Positions 9,375-62,080 are shown, counted from the first letter of the stretch. The stretch: DNA of 62,080 bases from Elusimicrobiota bacterium (GCA_041694815.1 JBGFSC010000009.1:1-62080); one strand, 5' to 3'. Made by a program: numbers and translations. Notes: a model not told the origin generated them from the letters alone.

Positions 9375-10346
9375 TTATAACCGTGACAAGGCTTTCGGAA
9401 TATCGGGGAAAGGGCTTCGGCCGCCTTGCCGGGCGGAGCGGATTATCCCCGCTAGATATTCGTCCAACCCGAGCCAGGCTCTGGAATGCAATCCTCTCGC
9501 TATTTCGGCGTCGGTCAGTTGATCCAGTTGTATGGTTCTTTCAAGAATCTGGCTATAACTTTTCCCGAAGGCATCCCAGCCTCTTTCCGCGAAGCGCCTT
9601 CCGTAGACTCGTAGCGCGACCGTCTCCGCCTTGTCTATGTCGGCCGTCGTTCGGCCGTGCACGACGATCGTATCAAACCGAACCACATTCGCCTTAAAAG
9701 CCGCATTCCATTTTACCTGTCCGTTAAAACCGGCTTTGGCCAGCTCGATGCGGAAGCCGTCGTATCTATGATGGGTATGCTCTATGCACGAGAGGGTCAA
9801 ATATCCCTTTGGATCGGTGTGGCCGTCGGCTGTCCCGAGATTTATCTTCGTGCTATTCCAGGGGAACTTGAGATGCCCGTTATCATGGTAGATTTTTATC
9901 CCCGCGGCTAAGGGCCGGCCTGATTCCTGGTGCCTTATATTTTGTTCCTCTTCGCGCGCGAACTCGTCTCGCCATTGTTCGGCGACGCGTAAATCTTCCG
10001 GCAGGTAAGCGGCCCGTCGCGCGTGATCGATAGTCAATCCACGCAAGTGTCTTCGATGGGTCAATAAGTCGTATACGGCCGGAAAATCATCGCGTATCGG
10101 GTGGTTGGCAGGAAGGCGGGATATCCAACCGGCGTATTCGGCTAAGGACATGTCGCTTGGGTTCCTATCCGCGCCAGGCTGAGATCCGCTAACGGTTGAG
10201 GTGGTTTGCCTCTCCCGAATGGAACGCAACGCGGCATCGCGCTGTTGAATGGCCTGCCTTTCGGCTGATTCCAGATCGTCCAACTGGCCCAATCCTATCG
10301 ATGGCGCGAGCATGATAAGCGCAATGAGCCAAAGCGAACATCTCAT
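9375..10346 (-). CDS. Secreted hypothetical protein
   Basis: Long ORF with lower GC and a signal peptide MRCSLWLIALIMLAPSIGLG. Confidence 0.65.
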   Translation of the reverse strand: MRCSLWLIALIMLAPSIGLGQLDDLESAERQAIQQRDAALRSIRERQTTSTVSGSQPGADRNPSDMSLAEYAGWISRLPANHPIRDDFPAVYDLLTHRRHLRGLTIDHARRAAYLPEDLRVAEQWRDEFAREEEQNIRHQESGRPLAAGIKIYHDNGHLKFPWNSTKINLGTADGHTDPKGYLTLSCIEHTHHRYDGFRIELAKAGFNGQVKWNAAFKANVVRFDTIVVHGRTTADIDKAETVALRVYGRRFAERGWDAFGKSYSQILERTIQLDQLTDAEIARGLHSRAWLGLDEYLAGIIRSARQGGRSPFPDIPKALSRL

Positions 10347-10627
10347 GATCCAAGTATGCCTCGTAAAGGGGCATGCCGCCAGAAAAGAAAATTTCAAGAA
10401 ATAAGACCCTATTTTTTAAAGGCTTTTTAAGCGACCCGCTTTTTTCTTGTTGAAACTTGATCTAGAAGATGGCGACGAATGCTTCGACGCTGAGCCCGGC
10501 ATCCTTTCTGGGCCATTAGACTTAAGGCGGGTCCGAAGGACCTATCGTCCATAGGCATGAAGGCCTAGTTCGATATTGCCCAAACGCCTCACGCAAATTT
10601 CGGCCGCGAGAATCATAATGAGGGTGG

Positions 10628-11401
10628 ATGAAGAAAAACTGGACAGCCGTTCTTCTTTTAACGTTGGCCCCTTGGGCCCGCGCTCAGGATTTCATCCCTA
10701 AATTCGTCTACATCCCGCCCGGAGAGTTCGATATGGGCAGTCTTGATAACGAGCAAGATAGATCCTCAGACGAAACACTGCACCGCGTGCGCATAAGCCA
10801 GGGCTTCGAGATGCAGACTACCGAGGTGACGCAGCTCCAGTATTATCTGATCACCGGCAGCAACCCATCGTGGTTTAAGGACTGCGAAAAATACGGCCCC
10901 AAGCAGGAGCCGATCTGCCCCAATCATTCCGTGGAGCAGGTCTCGTGGGAAGATGCCCAGGCGTTCATCCAACGTCTAAATGAATTGCAAGATAAATGCG
11001 TCTACCGCCTTCCCACTGAGGCGGAATGGGAATATGCGGCAAGGGGAGGGAAGTCGACGAGCTATTCGTTCGGCTCGAATGCCTCCGAATTGGGCGCGCA
11101 TGCCTGGTATTACGACAACTCAAATGGCCGAACTCATGCCGTTGCTTCAAAAAAGTCGAACCCGTTTGGCCTCTATGACATGCATGGCAATGTGTGGGAG
11201 TGGGTGCAGGACTGGTATGGGGATTACCCAAGCGGCAGCGTGACGGATCCTAAGGGCCCGAGTTCAGGCTCGGGCCGCGTCATCCGTGGCGGCTCCTGGT
11301 GCCGCAATGCCAGGAACCTGCGGTCGGCGCACCGCGTCTTCAACGGCCCCGGCGATCGCAACTACGATGTGGGGTTCCGCCTGGCGAGATCATGCCGTTA
11401 G
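10628..11401 (+). CDS. Secreted formylglycine-generating-enzyme-like (FGE-sulfatase/CLec) protein; remote DGR target 1
   Basis: Signal peptide; F.MGS, RLPTEAEWEYAAR, GLYDMHGNVWEW and RVIRGGSW...GFRLA motifs; 3' VR matches the two island targets. Confidence 0.92.
   Translation: MKKNWTAVLLLTLAPWARAQDFIPKFVYIPPGEFDMGSLDNEQDRSSDETLHRVRISQGFEMQTTEVTQLQYYLITGSNPSWFKDCEKYGPKQEPICPNHSVEQVSWEDAQAFIQRLNELQDKCVYRLPTEAEWEYAARGGKSTSYSFGSNASELGAHAWYYDNSNGRTHAVASKKSNPFGLYDMHGNVWEWVQDWYGDYPSGSVTDPKGPSSGSGRVIRGGSWCRNARNLRSAHRVFNGPGDRNYDVGFRLARSCR
11265..11388 (+). repeat. DGR variable region VR1
   Basis: 124-nt ungapped match to 58962..59085 and 60133..60256, differing only at codon positions 1-2. Confidence 0.88.
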
Positions 11402-11458
11402 CGCTTGGACGCTCGGGCCCTTGGCACTTGGTCCGCGGTTTATTTGAAGTAAATTAAG

Positions 11459-11499
11459 GAAGCGAGCCGGACGCGTGCGAAGCCGCGTACGGCGAGCTG
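11459..11499 (+). other. Conserved post-VR hairpin (DGR target-recognition element)
   Basis: GAAGCGAGCCGGACGCGTGCGAAGCCGCGTACGGCGAGCTG is nearly identical to 60319..60360; GC-GAA-GC cap. Confidence 0.75.
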
Positions 11500-11575
11500 G
11501 CCGCTCAGCCTTCTCGTTTTGAAAACGGGCAATGGCTTAACTTTTATTATTGCATCGCCGTATTTCAAGGGGCTA

Positions 11576-13414
11576 CTAACAGCAGCCGCCGGGAAATTGG
11601 AGGGCGAAATTCGCGCCGTCTTCCGGTGGAAGGCGCCCGTCTTGCCAAGAGCGGCGGCAGCGGCGCAGGGCGTCGGCGAGGATGACGATCGCGCAGATCA
11701 TGATGGAGGCCGTCAAGGCCGTGTTGAGCCAGCCGAGCAGGGCGGTCTCGGGGTGCCGCGCCAGGGGAAGGAAATTGTCGCGTATGCTCAGCGTGCCACC
11801 GGCGAGCGTCGTCCCGGTGACAAAGAGAAAGGGGATCCCCGGCACCCACGCGTAACGCTTCTTGCCCGCGTTAATGAGCGCGGTCAGCGCCACGCTCAGG
11901 GCGACCCCGGCCAAAAGCTGGTTGGCGATGCCGAACATCGGCCAGATCGTGGCGATGCTGCCCGTCTTAATCAGCAGAGCCCAGGCGAGCACGACCAGCG
12001 CCGTGGAGCCGACGGCGCCGGGCAGCCAGTCGGGTCTCTGGAAAGGCGCGTAGAATTTGCCCAAGAATTCCTGGAGCAGGAATCGGCCGACCCTGGTTCC
12101 CGTGTCGATCGTGGTGAGGATGAAGAGCGCCTCGAACATGATGGCGAAATGGTACCAGTAGGCCATCCAAGAGCGCATGCCGGGAAGAGCCGAGAAAATC
12201 TGCGCGAACCCCACGGCCAGCGAGACCGCCCCTCCCGGCCGGCCCGCCACCTGCTCGCCCACCTGGCGCGAGAGCTCCTCGAGATGCACGGCCGGAATTC
12301 CCAGCGAGGCGAATTTCTGGGCGGGGACGTTGATGGCGAAGTAGTCCCCGGGCTCCAGCGCGCAGGCCGCGATCAAGGCCACGATGCCCACCAGCCCCTC
12401 GAGCAGCATCGCGCCGTAGCCGATCATGCGCGCGTCGCTTTCCTTGGAGATCATCTTCGGGGTGGTGCCCGAGGCGACGAGGCCGTGGAAACCGGAGATG
12501 GCCCCGCAGGCGATGGTGATGAATACGAATGGAAACAGCTTGCCGGCGATGATGGGCCCGCCGCCGTGGATAAATGGCGTCAGGGCGGGCATGCGTATGT
12601 CGGGCATCACGACGAGGGCGCAGGCGACGAGGGCGAAGATGGTGCCCAGCTTCATGTAGGAGCTCAGGTAATCGCGAGGGCAGAGCAGCATCCACACCGG
12701 AAGCACCGAGGCGACAAATCCGTAGGCCGCCATGGCCCAGGTGATCTGCGAGCGCGAAAGGGTCAAGGCCTCGCCGAGGGCCGTATGCGGCACCTTGGCA
12801 CCCAGGACGACGGCGGCCAGCACCAGGGCGACGCCGACGGCGCTGGCCTCGCCGACCGCCCCGGGGCGCAGGCGGTACATGTAGAGCCCCACGAAGAGGG
12901 CGATGGGGATCGTCGCGCCGATCGTGAAGGTCCCCCACGCACTCTCGAAGAGGGCGTTGACGACGGCTAGCCCAAGCCCTGCCAAGGCAATGACCACGAT
13001 GAAGAGGATGGCCACCGAGGCCACCGCGCCAGCTATGGGGCCGATCTCGCGCCGCGCTACCAAAGCCAAGGATCGCCCGTCATGGCGCAGGGAGAGGCCG
13101 AGCATCAGGAAATCATGGACGGCGCCCGCCAGCACCACGCCGACGAGCAGCCAGAGAAAGCCCGGCAGAAAGCCGAACTGCGCGGCGAGCACGGGCCCGA
13201 TCAGGGGGCCGGCCCCGGAGATGGCCGCGAAGTGATGGCCGAAGAGCACCCAGCGGTTGGTCGGGTGGTAGTTGCTTCCGTCCTTAAGGCGGTGCGCCGG
13301 AGTGAGCCGCGCGTCGTCGAGCGCCAGTATCTTGGCGGCGATGAAAGCGGAATAGTAGCGGTAGGCGATCGCCATGACGCAAAGGGTCCCGACCAAGAAG
13401 GGCGCCGCGTTCAT
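11576..13414 (-). CDS. cstA: Carbon starvation protein A peptide/pyruvate transporter
   Basis: [29 protein letters not shown] and FEALFILTT motifs. Confidence 0.95.
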
Positions 13415-22807: not shown

Positions 22808-23896
22808 TTAAAAAAACCGCTGGCTCAAAGGAAGAGTCGCGGCCTCCTTGGAAGTCAGAAGCCTGGTCATGCCTATTATGTGGCAGAGCTCATCCTCGCC
22901 CAGGTCCGGATTAACCGGCTGGCTCTCGATTATCCACGAATTGCGGGTCCGGAAGCTGTACCGGCCGGCGCCGTCCTGGCGCAAGCCCACGACGAGCACG
23001 GAGTGATTGAGCGTGTTTCCCACGGCGTCGCTCGGCCTATGCGTGGCATGCTTCCAGGCAGGCATCCCCAACAACGCCAAGGACACCTCCACGGGGCGCC
23101 CGGCCTTTAATTCGGCGATCAGTTTTTTACGCCGGTCCCGGCTTATCTCGCCGCATTCCTTGGGTGAGATATGGAGATAACGTTCGGGGGGTAACCGGTC
23201 AAAATATAGGTGCGCGACTTCAAAGCCAGCCAATGCGTCCCGCACCCTGCGCCGGATCTCCGAGGCGAAAGGCACCGACTCCCATATTATCTTTTGCAAT
23301 TTCTTGAGCGCGGGGGTAGGGGATTGCTTGATCTTGAGACCGCGTGAATGGAGATGCGATAGAGAGGCCTCAATGGGTTTTTTAAGGTCTTCAATGTAGT
23401 CTTGAGCGAACTGCTCATAAGAAACTCCTCCGGCATTAGCAGGTAGAATGCCAAAGTTTAGAATGAACTGTAGATTTTCTGCAGGCCACGCACCCTCGCC
23501 GAGCATGCATTTATCCGTGCCAGCGTAGGTCTTGCAGACAGATGCTTCCGAATAGATGGCTCCGGTGCCGACTCGAGATTGGGCGAATAAATCGGCCTCC
23601 GAAAACGCGATATGGCTGCCATAGCGGCGATAATACGCGGCTTCGAGCAGGCCGACCGTCGCGAAGACGTGGCAGGTGCCGACTTTGCCTTGATCGGGGA
23701 CCTTGCCGGGAGGGAATTGATCCCGCAAATCCACTATATCCCTTATCGTGAAGGCCGGTAGGGCCAGCATGGCTTTCGGCGCCGACAGGGCCCTTGCCTG
23801 CTGAAAACCTTGGGCGAGCGCATCGAAGTCCTGTCCATGGATCGTGATGGAGCAAAACCCTTGAAAAAAAATGAGAAGTATCTTTAGATGTGCCAT
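22808..23896 (-). CDS. Secreted papain-like (C1) cysteine peptidase
   Basis: VDLR, DQGKVGTCH, FSEADL, NHSVLVVG and RNSW motifs. Confidence 0.82.
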   Translation of the reverse strand: MAHLKILLIFFQGFCSITIHGQDFDALAQGFQQARALSAPKAMLALPAFTIRDIVDLRDQFPPGKVPDQGKVGTCHVFATVGLLEAAYYRRYGSHIAFSEADLFAQSRVGTGAIYSEASVCKTYAGTDKCMLGEGAWPAENLQFILNFGILPANAGGVSYEQFAQDYIEDLKKPIEASLSHLHSRGLKIKQSPTPALKKLQKIIWESVPFASEIRRRVRDALAGFEVAHLYFDRLPPERYLHISPKECGEISRDRRKKLIAELKAGRPVEVSLALLGMPAWKHATHRPSDAVGNTLNHSVLVVGLRQDGAGRYSFRTRNSWIIESQPVNPDLGEDELCHIIGMTRLLTSKEAATLPLSQRFF

Positions 23897-23897
23897 G

Positions 23898-24989
23898 CTA
23901 TGGGGTCCTGGAGGCCTCCGCCGGGGTCAAAAAAGTGGTCATATGAAACACCCGGCAAAGATCCTCCTGGCGAAGGTCCGGGCTGAAGGCTCGGCCGTTA
24001 CGGAACCATGAATTGCGCGTCTTAAAGATGAATCGTCCTGCGGAGTCCTGCTGGAATCCCACCACGACAACGGAATGAGCAAGCGTCGATCCAACGGGAT
24101 CGTTCGGACGGTGTTTGGCTGTTCCCCAAAAGGCGATGCCTAGGGTGTGGACTGACGCCTCCACCGGAATACCCGTTCTTAATAACGCGAGCAATTGGTC
24201 TCGTTGCGCCATTCCTCGATTCGTGCATTCCCCCGAGGATATCTTCAAAAGGGTATCGTGTTTCAAACTTTCGAAGGCTCGGTGTCGCACAGAGAATCCC
24301 TGCAATGCTTCCCGAACCATTGCTCTAATTTCGGAAGCATAAGGGGCTGCTTGAAGGAGTTCTTCTGCCGTATCCGTCATTGGCTGTCGGGTCTTAGAAA
24401 GTTGAACCCCGCAGGTGCTGAGTCGTAATATGCTTTCACGAAACGGTATTTGGAATTTCTTGATGTAGTTCTTGGCGAATTCCTCATAGGATGTGCAACC
24501 TGCCGTATCGGGCAATACGCCTTCTCTCATGATAAAGAGCAGGTCTTGATAAGCCCAACCGGTCTCACCGAGGGCGCATTTGGTTTCGCCCCCATAGGTT
24601 TTGTAAATAACGGCATCGTTGAGCACGTGGGCGCCGGCCAACTTCGTTCGAGCAAATAGATCCGCCTCGGAGAAGGCGACATGTTGCCCGGAGTGACGGT
24701 AATAGGCTGCCTCCAGCAAGGCGATCGCGGTAAAATCGTGACAGGACGCGATGCTTCCTTGGTTAGGCGTCTTCTTTGGAGGAAATTGCCAGCTTAAATC
24801 CGCCCCCTTTGTTAGCGAGCCGGCCGGCAAGGCCAGCATGGCTTTCGGCGCCGACAGGGCCCTTGCCTGCTGAAAACCTTGGGCGAGCGCATCGAAGTCC
24901 TGTCCATGGACCGCGACGGAATAAAGCCCCGGAAAAATGCCGAGAATCAGTTCGAAAAGTCTTTTTCGATGCCGCATAGCTTCGTCCAA
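23898..24989 (-). CDS. Secreted papain-like (C1) cysteine peptidase, tandem paralog
   Basis: NQGSIASCH, FSEADL, AHSVVVVG and RNSW motifs. Confidence 0.82.
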   Translation of the reverse strand: MDEAMRHRKRLFELILGIFPGLYSVAVHGQDFDALAQGFQQARALSAPKAMLALPAGSLTKGADLSWQFPPKKTPNQGSIASCHDFTAIALLEAAYYRHSGQHVAFSEADLFARTKLAGAHVLNDAVIYKTYGGETKCALGETGWAYQDLLFIMREGVLPDTAGCTSYEEFAKNYIKKFQIPFRESILRLSTCGVQLSKTRQPMTDTAEELLQAAPYASEIRAMVREALQGFSVRHRAFESLKHDTLLKISSGECTNRGMAQRDQLLALLRTGIPVEASVHTLGIAFWGTAKHRPNDPVGSTLAHSVVVVGFQQDSAGRFIFKTRNSWFRNGRAFSPDLRQEDLCRVFHMTTFLTPAEASRTP

Positions 24990-25501: not shown

Positions 25502-26164
25502 ATGAAAAATAGGACGGTAGTTTTGGCTATTGCGTCGATTTTTTGCTGGAACGCGTCTCTATCGGCCGAACACGGCGCTTGGCAGGCCTGCGAAGAAGAT
25601 AGGGAGCGGCTTTGCAAGGATGTCGAGCCCGGAGGCGGGCGCATCATCGAATGCATGCTCAAAAACGAGGCCTCCTTGTCGGAGGGCTGCCGGGAGCATA
25701 TGGCCCAAAAGAAGAAACATTTCAACGCCGCCCAGAAAATGCACGACGCCTGCGGCGGCGATGTCGAGCGCTTCTGCAAGAATGTCGAGCCCGGAGGCGG
25801 CCGGCTCATGGAATGCCTCAAGGAGCACAAGGACGAGCTATCCCCAGCCTGCCGCGAGATGAAGTTTAGGGCCAAGGCGTACATGAAGGAGCACAAGAAG
25901 GAGCGCATGGCCGCCGTGGAGGACGCCTGCCGGGGCGACGTCAATGAGTTCTGCAAGGACGTGGAGCCGGGCGATGGGCGCATCATGCATTGCCTCAAGG
26001 ATCACAAAAGCGAGCTTTCGGAGGGCTGCCGCAACGCCTTCCATCATAAGCATAAGGGCCATGGGAAACACGGCAAGCATAAGGGCGGATATCATGAGGG
26101 CGACAAACATCGCCACCACGACGACAAGCACCACCATCACGACAAGCATCATCACGACGATTAG
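25502..26164 (+). CDS. Secreted cysteine-rich repeat protein with His-rich tail
   Basis: Three C..D..(R/E).CK.VEPG.GR...CL......LS..C repeats; His/Lys/Asp-rich C-terminus. Confidence 0.85.
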   Translation: MKNRTVVLAIASIFCWNASLSAEHGAWQACEEDRERLCKDVEPGGGRIIECMLKNEASLSEGCREHMAQKKKHFNAAQKMHDACGGDVERFCKNVEPGGGRLMECLKEHKDELSPACREMKFRAKAYMKEHKKERMAAVEDACRGDVNEFCKDVEPGDGRIMHCLKDHKSELSEGCRNAFHHKHKGHGKHGKHKGGYHEGDKHRHHDDKHHHHDKHHHDD

Positions 26165-30348: not shown

Positions 30349-30659
30349 CGGGCGGTTAGCTCCATCGCCCGTTCGATCGGGATGCGCACGATCTTGTGTC
30401 GCCGGTCGACCCATGCGTAGCTCGTCAGGATTTCCCTTTCCCGGCGGCGCAGCGCCTCAAGCTCCGCGGCCGGATCGACCTGCAGCCTGGGCTCCGGGGG
30501 AAGCCGCCCGGCCCACCGACCGGCCTGGCGTCCCTGAGTCCGCTCGAGCATCCACGTCAGCGCTCCCGAAAAACCGAATCCCGCCGCAAGAAGGGCGAGC
30601 AGGGCGGCTGCGAGCAGCCATACGAAGCGCCGCTCCACTCCGGGGTCTTCACGCCGCAT
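30345..30659 (-). CDS. Small ACIII-associated membrane protein (ActG-like)
   Basis: PPEPRLQ and Y.WVD....RIPIERAM motifs; operon position. Confidence 0.75.
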   Translation of the reverse strand: MRREDPGVERRFVWLLAAALLALLAAGFGFSGALTWMLERTQGRQAGRWAGRLPPEPRLQVDPAAELEALRRREREILTSYAWVDRRHKIVRIPIERAMELTAR

Positions 30660-31689
30660 GCGCGATTTCCTCCCGGCGGGGGTCGTCGGGAAGCGGCGAG
30701 GCCCTCCGTAGGCAATAGCGGAAACTCAGCAGCCAAAGCGCGCCCATCGCCAGGCACAACGGGTTCCCGGCGGCGGTCCCTGCGCGGGCGGGTTCGAAAG
30801 CGGGTAGGATCTGCCAGCAGAGATAGCCCCATCGTCCCAACAAGATCAACAGGGCGATGGCGGCGAGGCTTCGCGCGCGTCGCTTGATTGAACGCTGTAG
30901 TAGGAGCATGAAGGGAATAAGGAAGTGGAGCACGAACAAAATGGCTGGCGCCAGGCGCCAGGCGCCGTCGAGGCGGCGGAGGTACCAGGCGATCTCCTCC
31001 GGCAGGTTTCCGGCCCAGATGATCAGGTATTGGGAGAACGCCATGTAGGCCCATAGCATCAGAAAGGCCAGCAAGAGGTTCCCGAGGTCCTGCCAAAGAT
31101 CCCACGAACCGCCCGGCATCGCCCGGGCTCCGAACGCGGAGCTCAAGGTCAGGAAGGCCAGAGCCGCCAGGGCATGCCCCGTCAACATCTCCAAACCGTA
31201 GATCGTCGAATACCAGTGCGGCTCCAACGACATCGCCCAATCGATCGAGGCGAAGCTAACAGTCAAGGTCCAGAGCACCAGGCCGAGGGCGCAGAAAAGC
31301 TGTAGGCGGGCGATGGGAACGAGGCGGCCGCGATCCATCTCGAGCGAGCTGCGCCTAAGGAAGAAATAGGCGAGGACCCAAAGCGTGAAATAGCCCAGGG
31401 AACGGATCAAGAAAAAGGGAACATTGAGATAAAGCGCCTTGTTTCCCGCTCCCGGCCCGTGGGAACCAGAGCTCGTCCAGGGATAGAGCTCGTCCAAGCC
31501 AAAGGCCAAGGGCAAGGCAAGAAGAGCCATGAGCAGTATGCCCGCGGATGCCGCCTCCATGCGCCGCTGTAGGGCGAAGCCCCAGCGGCCTCCCACGACG
31601 TGGTGGAGCATCAAGAGTCCCAAGGAGCCCAGGGATATCCCGGTCCAGAACAGCCACGCCGCAAGATAGGCGGAAAGCCAGTAGCTCAT
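30649..31689 (-). CDS. actF: Alternative complex III subunit ActF
   Basis: DWAMSLEPHWYSTIYG, DLGNLL and SQYLIIWAGNLPEE motifs. Confidence 0.88.
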   Translation of the reverse strand: MSYWLSAYLAAWLFWTGISLGSLGLLMLHHVVGGRWGFALQRRMEAASAGILLMALLALPLAFGLDELYPWTSSGSHGPGAGNKALYLNVPFFLIRSLGYFTLWVLAYFFLRRSSLEMDRGRLVPIARLQLFCALGLVLWTLTVSFASIDWAMSLEPHWYSTIYGLEMLTGHALAALAFLTLSSAFGARAMPGGSWDLWQDLGNLLLAFLMLWAYMAFSQYLIIWAGNLPEEIAWYLRRLDGAWRLAPAILFVLHFLIPFMLLLQRSIKRRARSLAAIALLILLGRWGYLCWQILPAFEPARAGTAAGNPLCLAMGALWLLSFRYCLRRASPLPDDPRREEIAHAA

Positions 31690-32216
31690 GGCCGCGCCTC
31701 CAGGCGGCGCCGCTCGTGCGCGGGCACGTCGGCGAGCGAGGCATGCTGGCTGCGCTGCAACGCGCGGATGTAGGCAGCCACGGCCCAGCGCTCTTCGGGA
31801 GAAAGGCGCTCGGCGTATGAAAACATACGCCCATAACCGTTCGTGATGACAAGGAAGAAATGCTCGAGTCCCGCCGCGCGGAGGCGGCCTGAGTGATAGG
31901 AGGCCGGGGCGGGGAAGCCCCGCCGCACGACCATTCCGTCGCCGTGGCCCGAGTAGCCGTGGCAGACGGCGCAATGGATGTCGAAGCGTTCGCGGCCGCG
32001 TTTCAAGAGATCCAGAGTGATCCGCGGCGGCGCGTCGGCGCGCGCGGGGAACGACCCATGCGCGACGGTGCCGCCGGGCAACGGGCGTGCGGAGCGTTTA
32101 TCCGGAAAAAAACCGCTTTCTTGAAGGGGAAGCAGTTTCGCCTGCTGCGCCATCTCGCCGCCGCATCCGCAGGCGAGCGCCAAGAGAAATATCCTAGGCC
32201 GGCACATCCGCCACAT
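31686..32216 (-). CDS. actE: Alternative complex III monoheme cytochrome c lipoprotein ActE
   Basis: Lipobox Cys; CAVCH; RWAVAAYIRALQ. Confidence 0.88.
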   Translation of the reverse strand: MWRMCRPRIFLLALACGCGGEMAQQAKLLPLQESGFFPDKRSARPLPGGTVAHGSFPARADAPPRITLDLLKRGRERFDIHCAVCHGYSGHGDGMVVRRGFPAPASYHSGRLRAAGLEHFFLVITNGYGRMFSYAERLSPEERWAVAAYIRALQRSQHASLADVPAHERRRLEARP

Positions 32217-32742
32217 CGAGGGCTCCTTGCCGTCGCAGGAATCTGCGCGTGTCTTGCAGGTCAAAAAGCGGGTCCGAGGACTCAATATAAAGGAAAAAGC
32301 GATCCCGCGAAGCCCGCGCGAAGGCCGGCACGTTGAAGACGGGGTGATAGGGTCTGGGCAGTCCGTTGAGAAGCAGCATGCCGAAAACCGCCGCCAGCGC
32401 CGCAAAGAGTATGGTCATCTCGTAGATGACGGGGACGAAGGCGGGCCAGCTGTGAAGGGGACGCCCTCCCACATTGAGCGGGTAATGGACGGCCGAGAGG
32501 TAATACTGCATGGCGTAGCCGACGCCGGCCCCCAGGACTCCCCCGCCGAGCACGACCGGCGCCAGGGCGTCCCGGTGGAAGCCGATCGCTTCGCTCAACC
32601 CTTCGACGGGGAAGGGGGAGAAGGCGTCGAGGCGGCGGTAGCCGGCCGCATAAGCTCCGCGCGCGGCGGCCACGAGGGCCTTATGATCGGCGAACTCTGC
32701 CAGCAGTCCGCAGGAAGGCGCTCGCTCCGTCGCCGTGTTCAT
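32194..32742 (-). CDS. actD: Alternative complex III subunit ActD (DUF3341)
   Basis: GLLAEF, SPFPVEGL and GGRPLHSWPAF motifs. Confidence 0.9.
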   Translation of the reverse strand: MNTATERAPSCGLLAEFADHKALVAAARGAYAAGYRRLDAFSPFPVEGLSEAIGFHRDALAPVVLGGGVLGAGVGYAMQYYLSAVHYPLNVGGRPLHSWPAFVPVIYEMTILFAALAAVFGMLLLNGLPRPYHPVFNVPAFARASRDRFFLYIESSDPLFDLQDTRRFLRRQGALDVADVPA

Positions 32743-51616: not shown

Positions 51617-51693
51617 CGCGGGGTAGAGCAGCCTGGTAGCTCGCAAGGCTCATAACCTTGAGGTCGCTGGTTCAAATCCAGCCCCCGCAACCA
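51617..51693 (+). tRNA. tRNA-fMet (CAT), initiator
   Basis: CGCGGGG...CTCATAA...GGTTCAAATCC...CCCGCAACCA; 77 nt; C1:A72 mismatch; encoded CCA. Confidence 0.95.
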
Positions 51694-51801: not shown

Positions 51802-52770
51802 ATGGGAAATGGCATCGGATACGCGCCGCAGAGCGTCAACCAAGTCCCCATAGGTAATGCCTCGGAGGCCTTCATGCTCCGATGCCACGCGCAGAATCTT
51901 ACCAATGGGACCATCACTTGGTACACCGACCTCCTGCGCCTCTGGAATAGGTACCTCGAGTCGAAAGGCGTGACCCTCGCCAAGGAGGTTACGCCGGAGC
52001 TCATCCGGTCCTATTTTGACGACATGCGCAAGCGCGGCCTGGCGTCAGGCACGATCGCGCACACCTACGGTGCGCTGCGCTGCTTCTTTGGATTCCTTGC
52101 GCGCGAACGGATGATCCCGCAGAACCCCTTCGCCCTGGTCGCCAAACCGCGGATGGAGAAGAAGCTCATCAAGCCGCTCTCGATGGATCAGGCGCGGTTG
52201 CTTCTGGCGGCCATCAACAAGCGGCCTTTCCAAGGACAGCGGCTTTGGACCATGGTTGTCCTAATTCTCGATACTGGCCTGCGCGTCGCGGAAGTCATGG
52301 GGCTCAGGATGGACGATGTGGACTTTCAGGTGGGAGCGCTGCGCGTGTTAGGTAAGGGCGGCAAGGAGAGGCAGGTTCCGTTTAGCTCCACGGCCAAGCA
52401 GGCGCTTTGGAACTACATCGCGCGGCGCGGGGAAATCCCGGGGCAAGACTTTGTTTTCGTCAGCCAATTCGGGCAGCCGCTGGACCGCTGCTGGATGAGG
52501 AAGGCATTGCGTTGTGTCAACCGCAGGCTCGGGCTCAAGGGAGTCCGTCTATCGCCGCATACCTTAAGGCATACCTTCGCGACACAATACATCATCAACG
52601 GCGGAGACGCCTTCAGCCTCCAGGCGATCCTCGGTCATTCGACGATCGATATGGTCAAGGTTTACGTGGCGCTCGCCAACCGGGACATTGCCTTGCTTCA
52701 TCGGCGCTTCAGCCCGATGGAACGCATGGGAGTCGTGCCTGGCAGCAGGCGCCGCATCATGATCCGCTGA
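51802..52770 (+). CDS. Tyrosine recombinase/integrase
   Basis: DTGLR, GKGGKER, HTLRHTFA and LGHS...Y motifs; adjacent to the tRNA 3' end. Confidence 0.92.
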   Translation: MGNGIGYAPQSVNQVPIGNASEAFMLRCHAQNLTNGTITWYTDLLRLWNRYLESKGVTLAKEVTPELIRSYFDDMRKRGLASGTIAHTYGALRCFFGFLARERMIPQNPFALVAKPRMEKKLIKPLSMDQARLLLAAINKRPFQGQRLWTMVVLILDTGLRVAEVMGLRMDDVDFQVGALRVLGKGGKERQVPFSSTAKQALWNYIARRGEIPGQDFVFVSQFGQPLDRCWMRKALRCVNRRLGLKGVRLSPHTLRHTFATQYIINGGDAFSLQAILGHSTIDMVKVYVALANRDIALLHRRFSPMERMGVVPGSRRRIMIR

Positions 52771-55341: not shown

Positions 55342-58088
55342 GCGTTCTCTTTTCAGCGATCGCGTTGCTCTGGCCGGCGCTTGGAATTTCCGTTTCTGCT
55401 TCAGCGCAGGCGGCGGCCGTCACTTCGGCCCAGGCGAGCTTCGAGGATTTCCTGCGCGAGAACTACGACAATCAAACCCAGCCCTTGGCGCGGGCGGTCT
55501 TGACCGACTTAAGCGCCCTTCCCGCGCGTCCCTTCGCCGGCCGCGCCGAGGAGGTCGGAGGCATCCTGGCCGTGCTGGCCCAGAAGCAGGGCCAGAAGCG
55601 TTCGGTGCTTCTGACCGGCCCATCCGGCATCGGCAAGGGCGCCTTGATCCAGCATCTGGCCTCCGAGGTGAAGGTAGGCAATCTTTCCTTAGACGCCAAG
55701 TTCCTGGAGCTCGACCTGGCCCGCCTGTCGGGCATGGCCTCGCAGATGGCTCCGGCGCCGGGCCAAAAACCTCCATTTGAGGCCTTCTTCGAGGATGTTT
55801 TGCCGCCCTTGCGCGACAAGGCGATCATCGTGATGAAGGGGATCGAGGGCCTGCTTCAGCCCGGCGCCAATAGCCAGTTCGTGGAGCGCCTGCGCAACCC
55901 GATGGAGCGCTCGGGACAGCGCTTCATCTTCCTTTTAGAGAACGATGCCTCGCTGCCGGCCGATCATTTCATCCGCAAATACGCCCAGAAGATCGAGCTC
56001 AAGGAGCCCGATGAAAAAGGCGCCATGACGATGCTTTTGGCCAACAAAGGCAATTGGGAGTCCGCCTATGGTCTCAAGATCAAGGACGAGGCCATCGAGG
56101 ACTTGGTCGGGGTTTCCAAGGAGTTCCTACGCCGCCTGCAGCCATTGGAGCTCATCGACAATATGGAGGCGGCTCTCCGGGAAAATCAGCCGGAGGCTCG
56201 CAAGAACACCGCGCGGGCCTCGGCCAATGATCTGTTCTCCCGGCTTTCGCTCGCCCTGGCGAAGTACCGCAGGACCCAGTCCCCGAAGGACTATAACGAG
56301 GTCCTGGCCCTGGCCAAACAGTTGGAGGCCGAGCGGGCGCGGCTTAAGGCGGCCGGCGAGGTAGAGCTCGATTCGCAACAGGTCAAGGAGATCATGGCGG
56401 AAATCTACGACAATCCCATGATCTTAAAGAGCGACGATTTCCGCAAAACACTGCTTGCGGCGGTGCCGAAAGTCCGCGCTGGCGTCGTGGGCCAGGATGA
56501 GGCGGTCAACGCCGTCAGTGCCGTGCTGAAAAACACTGCGGCGGGGCTCGTCAGCAACAAGCGGCCCTTGGGCTCGTTTCTGCTCCTGGGCCCTACCGGC
56601 GTCGGCAAGACCCAATTGGCCCGCGTGCTCGCTCGCTCGCTTTTCGGCGATGAGAACGCCATGGCTCGGCTCGACATGTCCGAATACATGGAAAAGCACA
56701 CAGTTTCCCGGCTTATCGGCTCGCCTCCGGGATACGTGGGCTACGGCGAGGGGGGCCAGCTTACGGAGGTGGTGCGCAAGCGGCCCTATTCGGTGATCCT
56801 GTTCGATGAGATCGAAAAGGCTCATGCCGATGTCTTAAACGTGCTGCTTCAAATCCTTGAAGACGGGCGCCTGACCGACGGTCAGGGCCGCACGGTCGAT
56901 TTCCGCAGGACGGTTGTGTTCATGACCTCGAACCTGTCGAGCCGGCTGATCCAGCGCATGCAGGAGCAGGGCAAGACGTTCGAAGAAATCCAGGCGGCGG
57001 TCAAGGAGGACTTAAAGGGCCAGCTCCGGCCGGAACTGATCGGCCGACTAGATAAGGTCATCGTCTTTACGCCGCTCAATCGTGACCAGGTGTTGGGCAT
57101 TGGCGAGCTTCTGGCTAATGAGGAGATCGCCAAGCCCCTGGCCCAGGGTGGCCACGAGCTGGGCTATTTAGGGAAGAACGTTCTGGCCCACGTGGCCGAT
57201 CATGGCGGCTTCGACCCGGAATACGGCGCGCGTCCCATGCGCCGCGCCATGCAGGAGCAGATCCGCGACGCGGTGACCCAACACCTGCTCAACCAATCCG
57301 AAGGTCCGCGGAAAATCTCGATCGACTTAAATAAAGAGGGCAGGATCGAGGTGAAAAGCGAGGCTTTGGCCAAGAAGGTCGAGTCCAAGAACGCTTTGCC
57401 GGAAGGTTTGGGAAGCATCTGGCTGAGGCATATCCTCGATCCCAATGTCTGGCAGGACATGACGGTGTCGGCCTTGAAAGCGGTTTATGAGAGCTTCGGC
57501 CAAAAGCCGCTGCAATCCCAGAAATTCGACAATTTCGGCCTCCAGATAGCGTCCCCTAAGGGCGAGACGGTCCATCAGCTCAAGGCCAAGCATATGGATG
57601 CCAACTTGAACGACCCTGCTTTGACCTCGGAGAAAGCCCCTGGCGGCGGGCTTTTCGGCTGGATGGACAAATTGCGCAAAGAGGGCTACGGCGATGAGGA
57701 GCTTCGGGCGATCCAGGCCTGGGCGGCCAAGGCCCTTCGCTGCGGCAAGAGCGCTGCGGCAGCGCAGGTGCCCTCCTCCAAGCTCACCTTGGAATGGCAG
57801 GATTCATCGCTCGGCCATGTTTTGAGGGTCGATGCCCCGCCGCTCAACGAGCAAGAATTGGCCGAGGCCTACGGCAGCTATGAGGCGCATTTCTCGAGAA
57901 AGCCAGGCTCGCTCGAGGAAACCCTTAAGGAATCCGACGGCCTGAGCGCCGAAGGCCATCGCAGCCGGGCGCAGCTCATGGAGATCAAGCGGACCCTAGG
58001 TCAGATCCCGAACGCCTACTTCGGCGCTTATTGGGACAAGAGCAATTCGACGTACTGGCTGCTCGTTCCTAAGAGGAAACAGTCATGA
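55338..58088 (+). CDS. ClpB/ClpC-like AAA+ ATPase with signal peptide and unique C-terminal extension
   Basis: D2: GQDEAV, GPTGVGKT, DMSEYMEKH, PPGYVGY, DEIEKAH, GARPMRR. D1: GPSGIGKG with degenerate Walker B. Confidence 0.85.
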   Translation: MSVLFSAIALLWPALGISVSASAQAAAVTSAQASFEDFLRENYDNQTQPLARAVLTDLSALPARPFAGRAEEVGGILAVLAQKQGQKRSVLLTGPSGIGKGALIQHLASEVKVGNLSLDAKFLELDLARLSGMASQMAPAPGQKPPFEAFFEDVLPPLRDKAIIVMKGIEGLLQPGANSQFVERLRNPMERSGQRFIFLLENDASLPADHFIRKYAQKIELKEPDEKGAMTMLLANKGNWESAYGLKIKDEAIEDLVGVSKEFLRRLQPLELIDNMEAALRENQPEARKNTARASANDLFSRLSLALAKYRRTQSPKDYNEVLALAKQLEAERARLKAAGEVELDSQQVKEIMAEIYDNPMILKSDDFRKTLLAAVPKVRAGVVGQDEAVNAVSAVLKNTAAGLVSNKRPLGSFLLLGPTGVGKTQLARVLARSLFGDENAMARLDMSEYMEKHTVSRLIGSPPGYVGYGEGGQLTEVVRKRPYSVILFDEIEKAHADVLNVLLQILEDGRLTDGQGRTVDFRRTVVFMTSNLSSRLIQRMQEQGKTFEEIQAAVKEDLKGQLRPELIGRLDKVIVFTPLNRDQVLGIGELLANEEIAKPLAQGGHELGYLGKNVLAHVADHGGFDPEYGARPMRRAMQEQIRDAVTQHLLNQSEGPRKISIDLNKEGRIEVKSEALAKKVESKNALPEGLGSIWLRHILDPNVWQDMTVSALKAVYESFGQKPLQSQKFDNFGLQIASPKGETVHQLKAKHMDANLNDPALTSEKAPGGGLFGWMDKLRKEGYGDEELRAIQAWAAKALRCGKSAAAAQVPSSKLTLEWQDSSLGHVLRVDAPPLNEQELAEAYGSYEAHFSRKPGSLEETLKESDGLSAEGHRSRAQLMEIKRTLGQIPNAYFGAYWDKSNSTYWLLVPKRKQS

Positions 58089-59098
58089 GAAACATTCCCA
58101 TGCACGCGATGAAGGCAACAAGGATGATGGTCTTGGCGGCACTGATAGGGCAACTTTATGCGCCGGTCTGGGGCTACGAGATCCCCGACGGTCCTACGGA
58201 GGACCAGAGCTTCGAGGCTCATTTCCTGAACGCCAAGCAAAAGGTGACGGAGGGCGCGGCCGCCCTGGCCCCGAACGGGCAAAAGAACGAGACGCCGGTC
58301 ATCTCTGACGGTCAGGCCGGCATCGAGGCGATGGACGGCAAGCGGGTAGGCCTGGCGGCGCGATTCATTACGATCCAGCCTGGGACCTTCCAGATGGGAA
58401 GCCCGAGCAATGAATCTGGGCGCTATGACAACGAGATCCAGCACTCGGTCACCCTGACCCGGGGCTTCGAGCTGCAGGCGACCGCCGTGACCCAGATGCA
58501 GTACTTCTTGGTCATGGGCCGTAACCCATCTTACTTTCACGCTCGCGAGAATTGCGATCAAAGCAATGCTCCAGGCGCCAATAATTTCCGGGTCATCAAC
58601 GGCGCGGAAATCTGCGTCGACCATCCCGTAGAGCAGGTATCGTGGGAGGACGCTCAGGAATTCATCCGGCGGTTGAATGAACTCCAAAACCAATACACGT
58701 ATCGCCTGCCCACCGAAGCTGAACGGGAGTACGCGACAAGAGCCGGGACCTTATCGAGCTATTCGTTCGGCTCAAGCGAGTCCGATCTGGGCGACAATGC
58801 CTGGTATTATGGGAACTCTAATAACCGCACGCACGCGGTGGCGACGAAGCGGGCCAATCCGTGGGGCCTCTATGACATGCACGGCAACGTATGGGAATGG
58901 GTGCAGGACTGGTATGGGGACTATCCAAACCAGAGTGTGACGGACCCTAAAGGCCCGAATACAGGCTCGTACCGCGTCATCCGTGGCGGCTCCTGGGGCA
59001 ACAGTGCCGGGGGCCTGCGGTCGGCGTTCCGCTACTACGGCGGCCCCGGCGGTCGCAGCGGCTATGTGGGGTTCCGCCTGGCGAGGTCGCGACGTTGA
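58085..59098 (+). CDS. Secreted FGE-sulfatase/CLec protein; DGR target 2
   Basis: FQMGS, RLPTEAE, DMHGNVWEW and RVIRGGSW..GFRLARS motifs; C-terminal VR. Confidence 0.93.
   Translation: MRNIPMHAMKATRMMVLAALIGQLYAPVWGYEIPDGPTEDQSFEAHFLNAKQKVTEGAAALAPNGQKNETPVISDGQAGIEAMDGKRVGLAARFITIQPGTFQMGSPSNESGRYDNEIQHSVTLTRGFELQATAVTQMQYFLVMGRNPSYFHARENCDQSNAPGANNFRVINGAEICVDHPVEQVSWEDAQEFIRRLNELQNQYTYRLPTEAEREYATRAGTLSSYSFGSSESDLGDNAWYYGNSNNRTHAVATKRANPWGLYDMHGNVWEWVQDWYGDYPNQSVTDPKGPNTGSYRVIRGGSWGNSAGGLRSAFRYYGGPGGRSGYVGFRLARSRR
58962..59085 (+). repeat. DGR variable region VR2
   Basis: Ungapped match to VR1/VR3; downstream hairpin ATCGCCC-GTAAA-GGGCGAT within 59162..59189. Confidence 0.9.
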
Positions 59099-59207
59099 AA
59101 TTTGAACCCTTGGACACTCGGCCCTTGGCGGGAATTTTCAGCCAGGGAAAGCGCAGCCGGAGCGCATCGCCCGTAAAGGGCGATCGCGCAGGCGGAGCGA
59201 ACGGAGC

Positions 59208-60269
59208 ATGAATAGGAGCAAACTTGAGAGAACAAATATGAAAGAGCGCGTGATGATCTTGACGATGACATTGAGTTTGGTCTGCTCGAGCTCTCGCGCC
59301 TACGAGATTCCCGACGGCCCCACCGAGGATCAGAGCTTTGAGGCTCATTTTCTCAAGGCGAAGCAGAAAACAGCCGAAACCGTTCAAAAGGTCGAGGAAC
59401 GCAGAGCGGATGAGGCAGGACCCGCGGCTCAGGTCGTAGCCGAAACCTTGAACGCCATCGATGCCTTAAACGGCCAGCGCGTCGGCATGGCGGCACGGTT
59501 CATCGCGATCCAGCCGGGAACCTTCCAGATGGGAAGCCCCGGCGATGAGGCAAGCCGCGACAACGACGAGACCCAGCACTCGGTCACCCTGACCCAGGGT
59601 TTCGAGATGCAGGCCACGCCGGTGACGCAGATGCAGTATTTCCTGGTCACCGGCCGCAATCCATCGAACTTTCGAAACCGGGAGAACTGCGATCCCAATA
59701 ACTTTCGCGTTGTCAACGGGCTCGGGTTCTGCGCCGAGCACCCCGTCGAGATGGTCTCCTGGGAAGACGCGCAGGACTTCATCCGGCGTCTTAACGAGAT
59801 GCAAAACCAATATACGTATAGGCTTCCAACCGAGGCCGAATGGGAATATGCGGCGCGGGCGGGCACCCAGCCCGGCTTTCCTTATTCGTTCGGTCATAAC
59901 GATACAGGCGAACTCGACAATTACGCCTGGTATTCGAACAATTCAGGCAATCGAACGCACGCGGTTGCGATGAAGCGGCAGAATCCTTGGGGGCTTTACG
60001 ACATGCATGGCAATGTCTGGGAGTGGGTGCAGGATTGGTTCGGAGCTTATCCCAATACGGGAAGCGGCGGCTTCTTGGGCATAGGTGGCAATAGAGGCAA
60101 TGGCGCTGTGACCGACCCTAAGGGCCCGAATACAGGCTCGAGCCGCGTCATCCGTGGCGGCTCCTGGTACCGCAATGCCGGGCGCCTGCGGTCGGCGAGC
60201 CGCCTCTACAGCGGCCCCGGCTATCGCGGCAGCTATGTGGGGTTCCGCCTGGCGAGGTCGCGACGTTGA
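59208..60269 (+). CDS. Secreted FGE-sulfatase/CLec protein; DGR target 3 (start possibly 59238)
   Basis: Same motifs as target 2; C-terminal VR. Confidence 0.93.
   Translation: MNRSKLERTNMKERVMILTMTLSLVCSSSRAYEIPDGPTEDQSFEAHFLKAKQKTAETVQKVEERRADEAGPAAQVVAETLNAIDALNGQRVGMAARFIAIQPGTFQMGSPGDEASRDNDETQHSVTLTQGFEMQATPVTQMQYFLVTGRNPSNFRNRENCDPNNFRVVNGLGFCAEHPVEMVSWEDAQDFIRRLNEMQNQYTYRLPTEAEWEYAARAGTQPGFPYSFGHNDTGELDNYAWYSNNSGNRTHAVAMKRQNPWGLYDMHGNVWEWVQDWFGAYPNTGSGGFLGIGGNRGNGAVTDPKGPNTGSSRVIRGGSWYRNAGRLRSASRLYSGPGYRGSYVGFRLARSRR
60133..60256 (+). repeat. DGR variable region VR3
   Basis: Ungapped match to VR1/VR2; downstream hairpin at 60326..60354. Confidence 0.9.
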
Positions 60270-60377
60270 AATTTGAACCCTTGGACACTTAGCCCTTGGG
60301 TCGGCTGTTTGCAGTGAAGAAGCGAGCCGGGCGCGTGCGTAAGCCGCGCTCGGCGAGCTGTATAGAGGGAAGTAGAC

Positions 60378-60884
60378 ATGAAGCTCAAAGTGTTCACCCT
60401 GCGCATGAACCCGACGACAGGAAATTTCGATGACGCGGGGCTGTCGGAGTTTCAGTTAGGCAAGGACGTGCTGGAGGCGTCCGAGCACCTTCTCGTTCAC
60501 GAGAAAACCCCCACGCTGGTCTTGGTGTTGCGCTATCGGGAGGTCCCCGACGACAGGCGCTCGCCTGATGCCGCGCGCAAGGACTGGCGCGCGGAGCTGG
60601 ACCCCGCCGGCCAGCGGATTTACGACGAGCTGCGCCTCTGGCGCGGACGGCGGGCCAAGCAGGAGGGCATGCCACCGTATCTCATCCTCAATAATCGGGA
60701 ACTCGCGGAACTGGCCATGAAGAAGCCGACCAGTCTCGCCAAGCTGCAAGAGATAGAAGGCATCGGCGAGGCCAAGTCGCAGCGCTGGGGCGAGGAATTG
60801 CTCGGTCTCTTGGAAAAACTTGTCGCGCCCAAGGTGGAAACCGCAGCGGCCCCGGCTCAGCCGGGGGGGGGGGGTAATCTATGA
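60378..60884 (+). CDS. HRDC domain protein (DGR accessory)
   Basis: YDELRLWR...A..EGMPPYLILNN..L.ELA...P.....L..IEGIG..K...WG pattern. Confidence 0.88.
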   Translation: MKLKVFTLRMNPTTGNFDDAGLSEFQLGKDVLEASEHLLVHEKTPTLVLVLRYREVPDDRRSPDAARKDWRAELDPAGQRIYDELRLWRGRRAKQEGMPPYLILNNRELAELAMKKPTSLAKLQEIEGIGEAKSQRWGEELLGLLEKLVAPKVETAAAPAQPGGGGNL

Positions 60885-61225
60885 GCTCCGTGGAGCTTCC
60901 CCTCTTCGTCCATTGGACGCAAGTGCTCAAGGACATTTTATCGCGCACCGAAAAATTTCCCAAACGCGTTCGTTTTACCCTGTCTTCGCGCATCGATAAC
61001 CTGACGCTCGACGTCCTGGAAAAAATCGTCGAGGCGAGATACGCCAAGGACAAGGACGCCTCGCTCCAGCAGGCCAGCCTATATCTTGAGAAGCTTCGCG
61101 TGCTTCTTCGGATCAGCCATGAGGAGAAACATCTCGATCATCGCGGCTTTGAGCATGTGGCCCGCAATATCGACGAGGCCGGGCGCATGCTGGGCGGCTG
61201 GATACGGAGCAGAAAAGAAAAATGA
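60881..61225 (+). CDS. avd: DGR accessory variability determinant (four-helix bundle)
   Basis: KFPKRVRFTLSSRI, LEKLRVLLR and EAGRMLGGW motifs; overlaps the RT start. Confidence 0.9.
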   Translation: MSSVELPLFVHWTQVLKDILSRTEKFPKRVRFTLSSRIDNLTLDVLEKIVEARYAKDKDASLQQASLYLEKLRVLLRISHEEKHLDHRGFEHVARNIDEAGRMLGGWIRSRKEK

Positions 61226-61977
61226 AGCGAACCGGGCATCTTTTCGAGCAGGTCGCGGATTTCCACGCCCTTTGCGCTGCGGCCAGGCGGGCGGCGCGTG
61301 GCAAGGGCGGAACGCAGTCCGCGTCGTCTTTTCTATTCCACATGGAAGGCGAAGTGCTTCAGCTTCAGCGCGAGATATTGGATGGGACCTATCGCCCTCG
61401 CCAGTACCGCACATTCTACATTTCCGATCCCAAGCCTAGGACGATCTCGGCCGCAGATTTCAGGGACCGCGTGGCCCATCACGCCCTTTGCGCCATTTTG
61501 GAGCCGCTATTCGAACGGACGGCCATTGAGGATAGCTACGCCTGCCGAGCAGGTAAGGGTTCCCACCTGGCCGTGCAGAGGGCTCAATATTTCGCGAGAC
61601 GCTTGGGTCGCTTTCTGAAGCTCGATATCCGCAAATTCTTCGAGACCTTGGATCATGATGTGCTCAAGGCCGCCTTGCGGCGCATCATCAAAGACGAGCG
61701 CCTATTGGAGCTTACGGGCCGGATCATCGACCATGGCGCTCCGGGTTCACCGCGAGGCAGGGGGCTCCCCATAGGTAACCTGACGAGCCAGCATTTCGCT
61801 AACTTTTACCTCGGCCCGTTGGATCGCTTCATCAAGCAGGAGCTCCGCGTATTGGGCTATGTGCGCTATATGGACGACTTTCTGCTTTTTTCTGATTCCA
61901 AGGAGTTCCTGCGCCAAGCCCATCGGCGCATTTGCGAGTTCGTTGAAAGCGAGCTCAAGCCACTCCTGTCCGGTTAA
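61222..61977 (+). pseudogene. DGR reverse transcriptase, interrupted at 61960/61961 by an IS4 element
   Basis: PKPRTI...FRDRVAHHA, LKLDIRKFF, GLPIGNLTSQ..AN.YL and YVRYMDD motifs. The FLG motif and thumb are absent; the last codons PLLSG* come from the IS IR. Confidence 0.88.
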
Positions 61978-62080
61978 AGTTGGAGGCATAGCTGGAGGTC
62001 TTGACGCCTGAGGCGGTCGAGCCTTTTGGGGTTGAGGTGGAGCAGATCGAAAAGCGAGGCTCGCTCAAGCAAGGTTTCTT
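61961..62080 (-). mobile_element. Right (3') end of IS4-family element with transposase C-terminus
   Basis: IR CACTCCTGTCCGGTTAAA; the - strand frame ETLLERASLFDLLHLNPKRLDRLRRQDLQLCLQL* ends inside the IR at 61974. Confidence 0.82.

Follow-up and report, generated by a model that had tools for sequence, protein, structure and literature searches.

The sequence analyzed here (the window) is the whole of contig C25, 62,080 nt, from the genome of an Elusimicrobiota bacterium (GCA_041694815.1, JBGFSC010000009.1:1-62080), the assembly of which comprises 54 contigs and 2.77 Mb. Close to its right-hand end, at 58–62 kb, the window encodes a diversity-generating retroelement (DGR) that is carried on an integrated genomic island. 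Our subject is a stand-alone gene at 10,628–11,401, hereafter the outlying gene, which we regard with high confidence as a genuine target of that DGR. It encodes a protein of the formylglycine-generating enzyme (FGE)-sulfatase family and begins a short series of features:

10628..11401, + strand: stand-alone gene, very probable DGR target, 257 aa, FGE-sulfatase / C-type-lectin fold (Pfam PF03781, E = 2e-50)
11263..11388, + strand: variable repeat (VR) of the outlying gene, 126 nt, which differs only at adenines from the template repeat TR1, from which it was very probably written
11389..11401, + strand: coding end after the VR plus stop codon; VR-side flank, different from the template-side flank in an alignment of VRs and templates
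11404..11431, + strand: CTTGG direct-repeat array, three copies (11404, 11420, 11427), lying 15, 31 and 38 nt past the VR end (GGCGAG)
11466..11493, + strand: GC-rich hairpin with a bulge and a GC-GAA-GC apex (DNA fold -15.5 kcal/mol, z = -2.7)
11576..13414, - strand: cstA, convergent chromosomal neighbor (Pfam CstA, E = 1e-211)

The FGE-sulfatase match spans the full length of the open reading frame (ORF). The closest solved structure in the PDB is TvpA, the DGR variable protein of Treponema denticola (2y3c, E = 1.7e-36). Based on these two matches, the VR encodes the C-terminal end of a protein with a C-type-lectin fold. The N-terminus, MKKNWTAVLLLTLAPWARA/QD, looks by eye like a signal peptide, and this reading is the basis for describing the protein as secreted. 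An N-terminal extension of ~75 residues that is common to both target genes of the DGR cassette is missing from the outlying gene in the alignment. Thus, the initial annotation of this DNA was correct in placing an FGE gene beside cstA and in noting that its N-terminus differs from those of the cassette genes. The other neighbor is an ORF without a family assignment. Neither a sigma-70-like promoter for the outlying gene nor a convincing terminator at its hairpin was found. A search of 40 relatives (no same-genus genome among them) with positions 9,375–13,414, at the DNA level only, returned cstA at no more than 78% identity and no match extending from cstA into the FGE gene. An exact 24-mer scan of metagenome contigs returned four loci and no same-species copy; three of the loci are FGE genes that contain the 24-mer but are otherwise unrelated, and the fourth (L013) belongs to a different DGR. 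A search of public sequencing runs with positions 10,400–11,700 yielded none.

The DGR lies about 48–50 kb from the outlying gene, and the first of its repeats is 47,697 bp away. The following features were identified:

58085..59098, + strand: island target 1 (T1), FGE-sulfatase (E = 2e-48), VR at 58960-59085, hairpin at 59162-59189
59208..60269, + strand: island target 2 (T2), FGE-sulfatase (E = 2e-48), VR at 60131-60256, hairpin at 60326-60354
60378..60884, + strand: HRDC-domain accessory gene (Pfam HRDC, E = 1e-17)
60881..61225, + strand: Avd accessory gene (Pfam bAvd, E = 5e-17)
61222..61960, + strand: 5' part of the reverse transcriptase (RT) gene, residues 1-246, with IGNLTSQ and YMDD (Pfam RVT_1, E = 3e-16)
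61961..62080, no strand assigned: end of an insertion sequence (IS) that interrupts the RT gene; contig end; identical sequence at 13 contig ends

RTs of the DGR clade have motif 4, (I/L)GxxxSQ, together with YxDD. The cassette includes HRDC and Avd genes and an RT gene with both motifs (IGNLTSQ and YMDD), which is interrupted after residue 246. At the 3' end of the HRDC gene, a run of 12 G (60863-60874) stops 6 nt short of the avd start codon; it may be prone to slippage, or the assembly may be unreliable at this site. Upstream of T1, positions 55338-58088 encode a 916-aa ClpB-like double-AAA+ protein with a hydrophobic N-terminus. Because its stop codon overlaps the T1 start (ATGA at 58085), the arrangement suggests that the two genes form one operon. 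There is no template repeat in the window. BLAST of the repeat against the assembly placed TR1, an AAC-rich copy, on the minus strand of contig C31 at ~9470-9345.

Mismatches to TR1 were counted over a 124-nt core, from CAGGCTCG to GGCGAG. The repeat of the outlying gene is changed at 14 of the 30 template adenines and at none of the 94 other positions (Fisher p = 1.3e-10). The repeats of T1 and T2 are changed at 19/30 and 17/30 adenines, respectively, and each at 0/94 positions elsewhere; across the three repeats, drift at non-adenine positions amounts to 0/282. When the comparison is extended by 2 nt at the 5' end, the outlying repeat is changed at 15 of 31 adenines (A>G 7, A>T 6, A>C 2). 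Codon positions 1 and 2 account for all 15 changes and for 30 of the 31 template adenines. Divergence between VRs and template begins directly after GGCGAG.

The shared nucleotides stop where the repeat stops. Upstream of the repeat, the outlying gene agrees with T1 and T2 at 101/212 and 103/207 third codon positions (48–50%); over the stretch from the repeat up to the stop codon, it agrees at 42/45 (93%). Among residues identical to those of T1 and T2, the codon is also the same for 63/120 and 62/116 upstream of the repeat, compared with 26/28 and 28/30 inside it. Homogenization is confined to the repeat. This agrees with the initial annotation, which reported that the invariant VR nucleotides, including third codon positions, are the same as in the island targets and that the rest of the gene has diverged synonymously. 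The same annotation named two observations that would have counted against it, mismatches to the real template outside adenines and third-position identity equally high along the whole gene, and neither was seen.

Two invariant motifs of the VR have three exact occurrences each in the window (11276/58973/60144 and 11369/59066/60237), compared with 0.00 and 0.01 matches expected from dinucleotide-preserving shuffles. A repeat search of the window recovered a single family of 193 nt, which is present at 11239, 58936 and 60107. Across all 54 contigs, each motif has one extra exact copy, on C31, which is TR1 itself. The suggestion that more targets exist elsewhere in the genome was not borne out, as no further TR1 target was found in the 54 contigs (an assembly scored as 97.8% complete).

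At the 31 adenine sites, the outlying repeat differs from T1 at 22, from T2 at 17 and from the template at 15. Its pattern is independent of the other repeats, and it is therefore no copy of either island repeat. These counts bear on a rival route, in which homologous recombination or gene conversion transferred the sequence from template DNA or one of the island repeats, with no reverse transcription. The genome does contain three to four similar segments of ~125 nt, and the outlying gene and T2 carry the same base at 6 of the 9 adenine sites that are mutated in both. However, no existing copy has the pattern required of a donor, and gene conversion would not limit the differences to adenines. 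We consider this route very unlikely.

On this other contig, the template lies behind the IS. The RT ORF of the island DGR stops at residue 251, and a multi-copy IS interrupts it after residue 246. The element has 18-bp terminal inverted repeats and is flanked on both sides by a 9-bp target-site duplication, AGCTCAAGC. C25 is bounded by the IS on both sides (2-118 and 61961-62080). The IS-end sequence (116–120 nt) is identical at the 13 contig ends, and the interior of the element lies outside the assembly. The reverse complement of C31 starts with the other end of the same IS, and both C31 ends carry IS ends. On its minus strand, the IS end codes for the C-terminus of an ORF with a conserved counterpart in a related element from a different genome, and we therefore regard the element as a protein-coding insertion sequence. 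The 163-aa ORF of the related element (L098) has no match in Pfam. The encoded protein may resemble the C-termini of IS4-type transposases, and the element is left unclassified.

The two parts of the RT were joined by comparison with a second, intact DGR that is encoded on contig C37 (~30440-33540, minus strand). This DGR comprises a target, a hairpin, HRDC, Avd and RT genes, and a template, TR2, that overlaps the RT end; its RT (C37:31581-30445) is 378 aa long and intact. Residues 1-246 of the C37 RT align to C25:61222-61959 (79% identity) and residues 244-377 to C31:9759-9352 (66% identity). The 3-residue overlap of these alignments, ELK, corresponds to the duplicated 9 bp, and TR1 follows directly; it and the 3' end of the RT frame overlap, an arrangement also seen for TR2 in the second DGR. 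An artefact of binning or assembly, in which C31 and the template come from another strain or organism, has to be considered for a binned assembly of 54 contigs that leaves the IS junction unassembled. Several observations speak against an artefact: C31 ends in the same IS ends as the 13 other contig ends, both the 9-bp duplication and the reading frame of the RT agree on the two sides of the gap, C31 has the GC content of the island (0.576), and the match of TR1 to the adjacent repeats of T1 and T2 is as perfect as its match to the outlying repeat. An artefact thus seems very improbable.

Other genes of the same family in this genome serve as controls. A tblastn search of the assembly identified 11 FGE paralogs, of which three (the outlying gene, T1 and T2) match TR1 perfectly at non-adenine sites. 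The C37 paralog has the same relation to TR2, with 96/96 non-adenine sites matching and 19/28 adenines changed. The remaining seven have 10–34 non-adenine mismatches to either template:

C8:7068-7841; C40:455-1165; C38:541-1314; C19, three genes; C34:3765-4466: seven other FGE-lectin paralogs

The closest paralogs of the outlying gene are the stand-alone genes on C8, C40 and C38 (77–80% amino-acid identity), and the island genes are only 57–61% identical to it. Over the same 94 positions, C8, C40 and C38 have 15, 11 and 19 non-adenine mismatches to TR1. With C-terminal segments that resemble the templates, the seven look like eroded former targets. The C8 paralog also shares the first ~55 nt of its 3' flank with the outlying gene and has no hairpin.

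The shared nucleotides might instead be put down to recent duplication or to purifying selection acting on the C-terminus, where all 11 paralogs keep the RVIRGGSW...VGFRLA scaffold. This is hardly credible given the step in third-position identity at the repeat, the restriction of TR1 mismatches to adenines, and the seven paralogs that carry the same scaffold yet have accumulated mismatches at non-adenine sites.

It is just as implausible that the outlying gene is a target of the C37 DGR rather than of the island DGR: that element is intact, and the outlying 3' flank is nearer to the C37 target tail than the island tails are (the shared CTTGGCACTTGGTCCGCG and the ...CCGTTAG ending), but outside adenines the outlying repeat departs from TR2 at 13 positions and from TR1 at none. 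We therefore conclude that its template is TR1 and reject TR2. The match identifies the template only, and is compatible with use of TR1 RNA by the proteins of the second element. The two systems are closely related (HRDC 74%, Avd 77%, RT 79% and 66% identity over its two parts), and the 171 nt downstream of TR1 and TR2 are 84% identical. The second DGR's own repeat differs from TR2 at 19/28 adenines and at 0/96 other positions.

We do not class the protein encoded by the outlying gene as a catalytic formylglycine-generating enzyme. Catalytic FGE has a conserved pair of catalytic cysteines in its C-terminal segment. At these positions TR1 encodes Asn, and the outlying protein has a single Cys, which derives from adenine mutagenesis. 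The cysteine pair is not present, and that identity was rejected in favor of the fold only. According to Wu et al. (2018, PMC5758913), TvpA has no FGE activity.

Downstream of the repeat, the outlying gene shares a tail with the island targets, as the initial annotation described: a CTTGG array, of three copies in the outlying gene, followed by a GC-rich hairpin. The island hairpins, at 60326-60354 and 59162-59189, have z = -3.0 and z = -4.2, respectively. The CTTGG stretch itself was also considered as a folded structure and rejected, as it folds no better than shuffles (z = 0.2 and 1.0). The outlying hairpin aligns with that of T2 and is homologous to the hairpins behind the C37 target and behind the targets of two DGRs in other assemblies (L015 and L016). 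Relative to the T2 hairpin, one pair is changed on both sides (G:C to A:T), there is one stem mismatch, and the loop is 1 nt shorter. The apex is GTAA in T2, the C37 target, L015 and L016, GTGA in a third DGR from another assembly (L017), and a 5-nt GTAAA loop in T1.

All four clean repeats in the genome are followed by 2–3 CTTGG copies within 45 nt and by a hairpin in which a base is bulged out beneath the apical GC pairs. In each of the seven eroded paralogs, CTTGG occurs at most once and the apex motif is missing from its place. The same tail layout occurs in all three of the closest DGRs in other assemblies (L015, L016 and L017; RT 76–78% identical), with 2–4 CTTGG copies each and the hairpin 53–122 nt downstream. 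In L017 the sequence of the outer stem is entirely different, and the bulge and the GC-GTGA-GC apex are kept.

A wider and rougher survey of 80 related loci (L015-L094) yielded 35 with an adenine-type template/repeat pair (36 pairs), all with usable tails. In 17 of the 35 loci, which come from many phyla, a direct repeat with a 7–8-nt period (z >= 2.5) was detected in the first 90 nt behind the VR. These repeats are of the type CYTTKRM, e.g., CTTTTAC, CCCTTGGA, CTTTTACC and similar. VR tails score above template tails for the periodic repeat (paired Wilcoxon p = 9e-6, a value that is overstated because the loci are related), and no direct-repeat array was seen behind templates. The array may be a VR-side recognition element. 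We found no description of a direct-repeat array behind VRs in the literature searched and make no claim that it is absent from print. In the parts of Wu et al. (2018) that were covered, 'direct repeat' does not occur and 'tandem' is used in other senses. It is possible, although we think it doubtful, that the CTTGG-type array (~8-nt period) and the distal hairpin with a GTRA apex form a portable tag that determines which lectin paralog is written by this clade of DGRs.

The sequence of events that we propose is as follows. TR1, at the 3' end of the RT gene, would be transcribed and then reverse-transcribed with random misincorporation opposite adenines. The resulting cDNA would have replaced the last ~126 nt of the coding sequence of the outlying gene, in trans, ~48–50 kb from the cassette. 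Three features would address homing, namely the GC-rich 3' terminus of the repeat (GTGGGGTTCCGCCTGGCGAG), the CTTGG array that follows it and, farther downstream, the GC-rich hairpin; the tail elements are assigned this part tentatively. The product would be a secreted TvpA-like lectin with a ligand-binding face that is varied at ~13 codons.

Several observations weigh against this account. The cognate RT is probably dead in the assembled genotype, and the C25–IS–C31 linkage is a reconstruction across a gap in the assembly. The repeat comparisons are all made within a single assembled genome. The association between tail and target status is confounded by shared ancestry. The apex of the outlying hairpin is a 3-nt GAA with a stem mismatch, and the other six hairpins have GTAA or GTGA. 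In addition, this hairpin is 77 nt from the repeat, outside the range of 4–34 bp reported for phage DGRs, and for this reason it is only a candidate recognition element.

Because the RT gene is split by the IS, writing of the outlying gene by the island DGR may be historical rather than ongoing. The complete lack of non-adenine drift fits a recent IS insertion, since the IS ends are identical at 13 contig ends. It fits equally well with continued writing by the proteins of the second DGR.

The system is most similar to the DGR of Treponema denticola, which diversifies TvpA (2Y3C) and typifies architecture C, the class of cassettes with an HRDC gene (Wu et al., 2018). Both have FGE-sulfatase-type lectin targets with a C-terminal VR, and both have several targets, some of them away from the cassette. 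FGE-sulfatase proteins are the largest class of DGR targets in that survey (71/372). Unlike the Treponema system, the DGR described here occurs in a host of a different phylum, encodes Avd as well, is carried on a tRNA-Met island, has an RT split by an IS and is accompanied by a second, related DGR. One non-adjacent target was found here, compared with seven in Treponema.

Targets separate from their cassettes are well documented. Wu et al. (2018) list 73 non-adjacent targets for 45 of 372 DGRs, and 76 remote targets are reported for cyanobacteria (Vallota-Eastman et al., 2020, PMC7517822). The outlying gene has A-to-N differences only, lies outside other DGR cassettes and is separate from the RT. 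These are the criteria of Wu et al. (2018), and under the same operational definition the gene does not differ in kind from the catalogued non-adjacent and remote targets. In their usage, targets are non-adjacent below 100 kb and remote above 100 kb, so that the label 'remote' given to this gene in the initial annotation should be replaced by 'non-adjacent'. In Thiohalocapsa PB-PSB1, related DGR loci, incomplete loci with diversification in trans and decay of DGR parts by transposons have been described (Dore et al., 2024, PMC10907252). That genome has seven loci, with activity known from population data; here there are two loci, known from the assembly alone. A distant target, co-resident DGRs and IS damage therefore all have precedents.

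The target site of phage BPP-1 combines an IMH with a GC-rich hairpin or cruciform. Efficient homing there needs the hairpin, which has a GRNA loop and lies 4–34 bp behind the repeat; its loop sequence is constrained, and that of its stem is not (Guo et al., 2011, PMC3240598). GC-rich inverted repeats follow 34% of repeats in the survey of Wu et al. (2018). Like BPP-1, the tails described here have a GC-rich repeat 3' end and a ~10-bp GC-rich hairpin downstream, with a variable stem and a conserved apex. Unlike BPP-1, the hairpin is at 53–122 nt, the apex is GTAA/GTGA (GAA in the outlying copy) rather than GRNA, and a CTTGG-type array with a period of ~8 nt lies between repeat and hairpin; mention of such an array was not found in the parts of the BPP-1 report that were covered. 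The outlying gene thus has a VR-specific 3' element, as expected of an IMH that differs from the IMH* of the template, and a downstream GC-rich inverted repeat, but it departs from the BPP-1 pattern in the 77-nt distance and in the GAA apex.

The island boundary on C25 is marked by two features:

51617..51693, + strand: tRNA-Met, att-side island boundary (ARAGORN, Rfam)
51802..52770, + strand: island integrase, a tyrosine recombinase (Pfam Phage_integrase, E = 3e-37)

The last 52 nt of the tRNA-Met are repeated at C54:94485-94536, inside a degenerate pseudo-tRNA. GC content is 0.59 at C25:51.7–62.0 kb, 0.58 on C31 and 0.55–0.60 on C54 above 94.5 kb, compared with 0.63 for the rest of C25 and 0.63–0.68 on C54 below 94 kb. 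Given the tRNA and integrase, the 52-nt tRNA repeat and the GC step, we conclude that the DGR is inside an integrated element of at least ~39 kb that extends over three contigs, in an order that is itself reconstructed. The outlying gene is ~41 kb outside the tRNA-side boundary. The central proposal of the initial annotation, that an island-borne DGR diversified a gene outside the island in trans, is thus supported.

An Rfam scan of the whole window detected nothing but the tRNA-Met. Elsewhere in the window, positions 48698-49987 match the TLC ATP/ADP-transporter family (PF03219, E = 5e-19), which is best known from obligate intracellular bacteria. A repeat scan identified three 116-nt units with a spacing of 162–177 nt (25578-26032), a tandem pair of paralogous genes that are 73% identical (23583-24946), and a 300-nt pair, 6.5 kb apart and 76% identical (37964-38263 with 44430-44729).

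In summary, a tRNA-linked, island-borne DGR has very probably written a host-chromosome gene outside the island, and the reading is controlled by eleven paralogs and two templates within one genome. The case is an example of the capture of resident surface-protein genes by a mobile diversifier, a principle already documented for Treponema, cyanobacteria and Thiohalocapsa. The series of paralogs, with one stand-alone copy in register, three eroded and differing 3' tails, points to the determinants of a target site. A broken cognate RT beside a related, intact DGR provides a natural test case for cross-complementation between DGRs. If the tail does act as a portable tag, paralogs would join or leave the target set by keeping or losing it. 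This would explain why, of four stand-alone paralogs, three are eroded and one has kept perfect register with the template, and how a resident chromosomal gene could be captured by an island-borne DGR.

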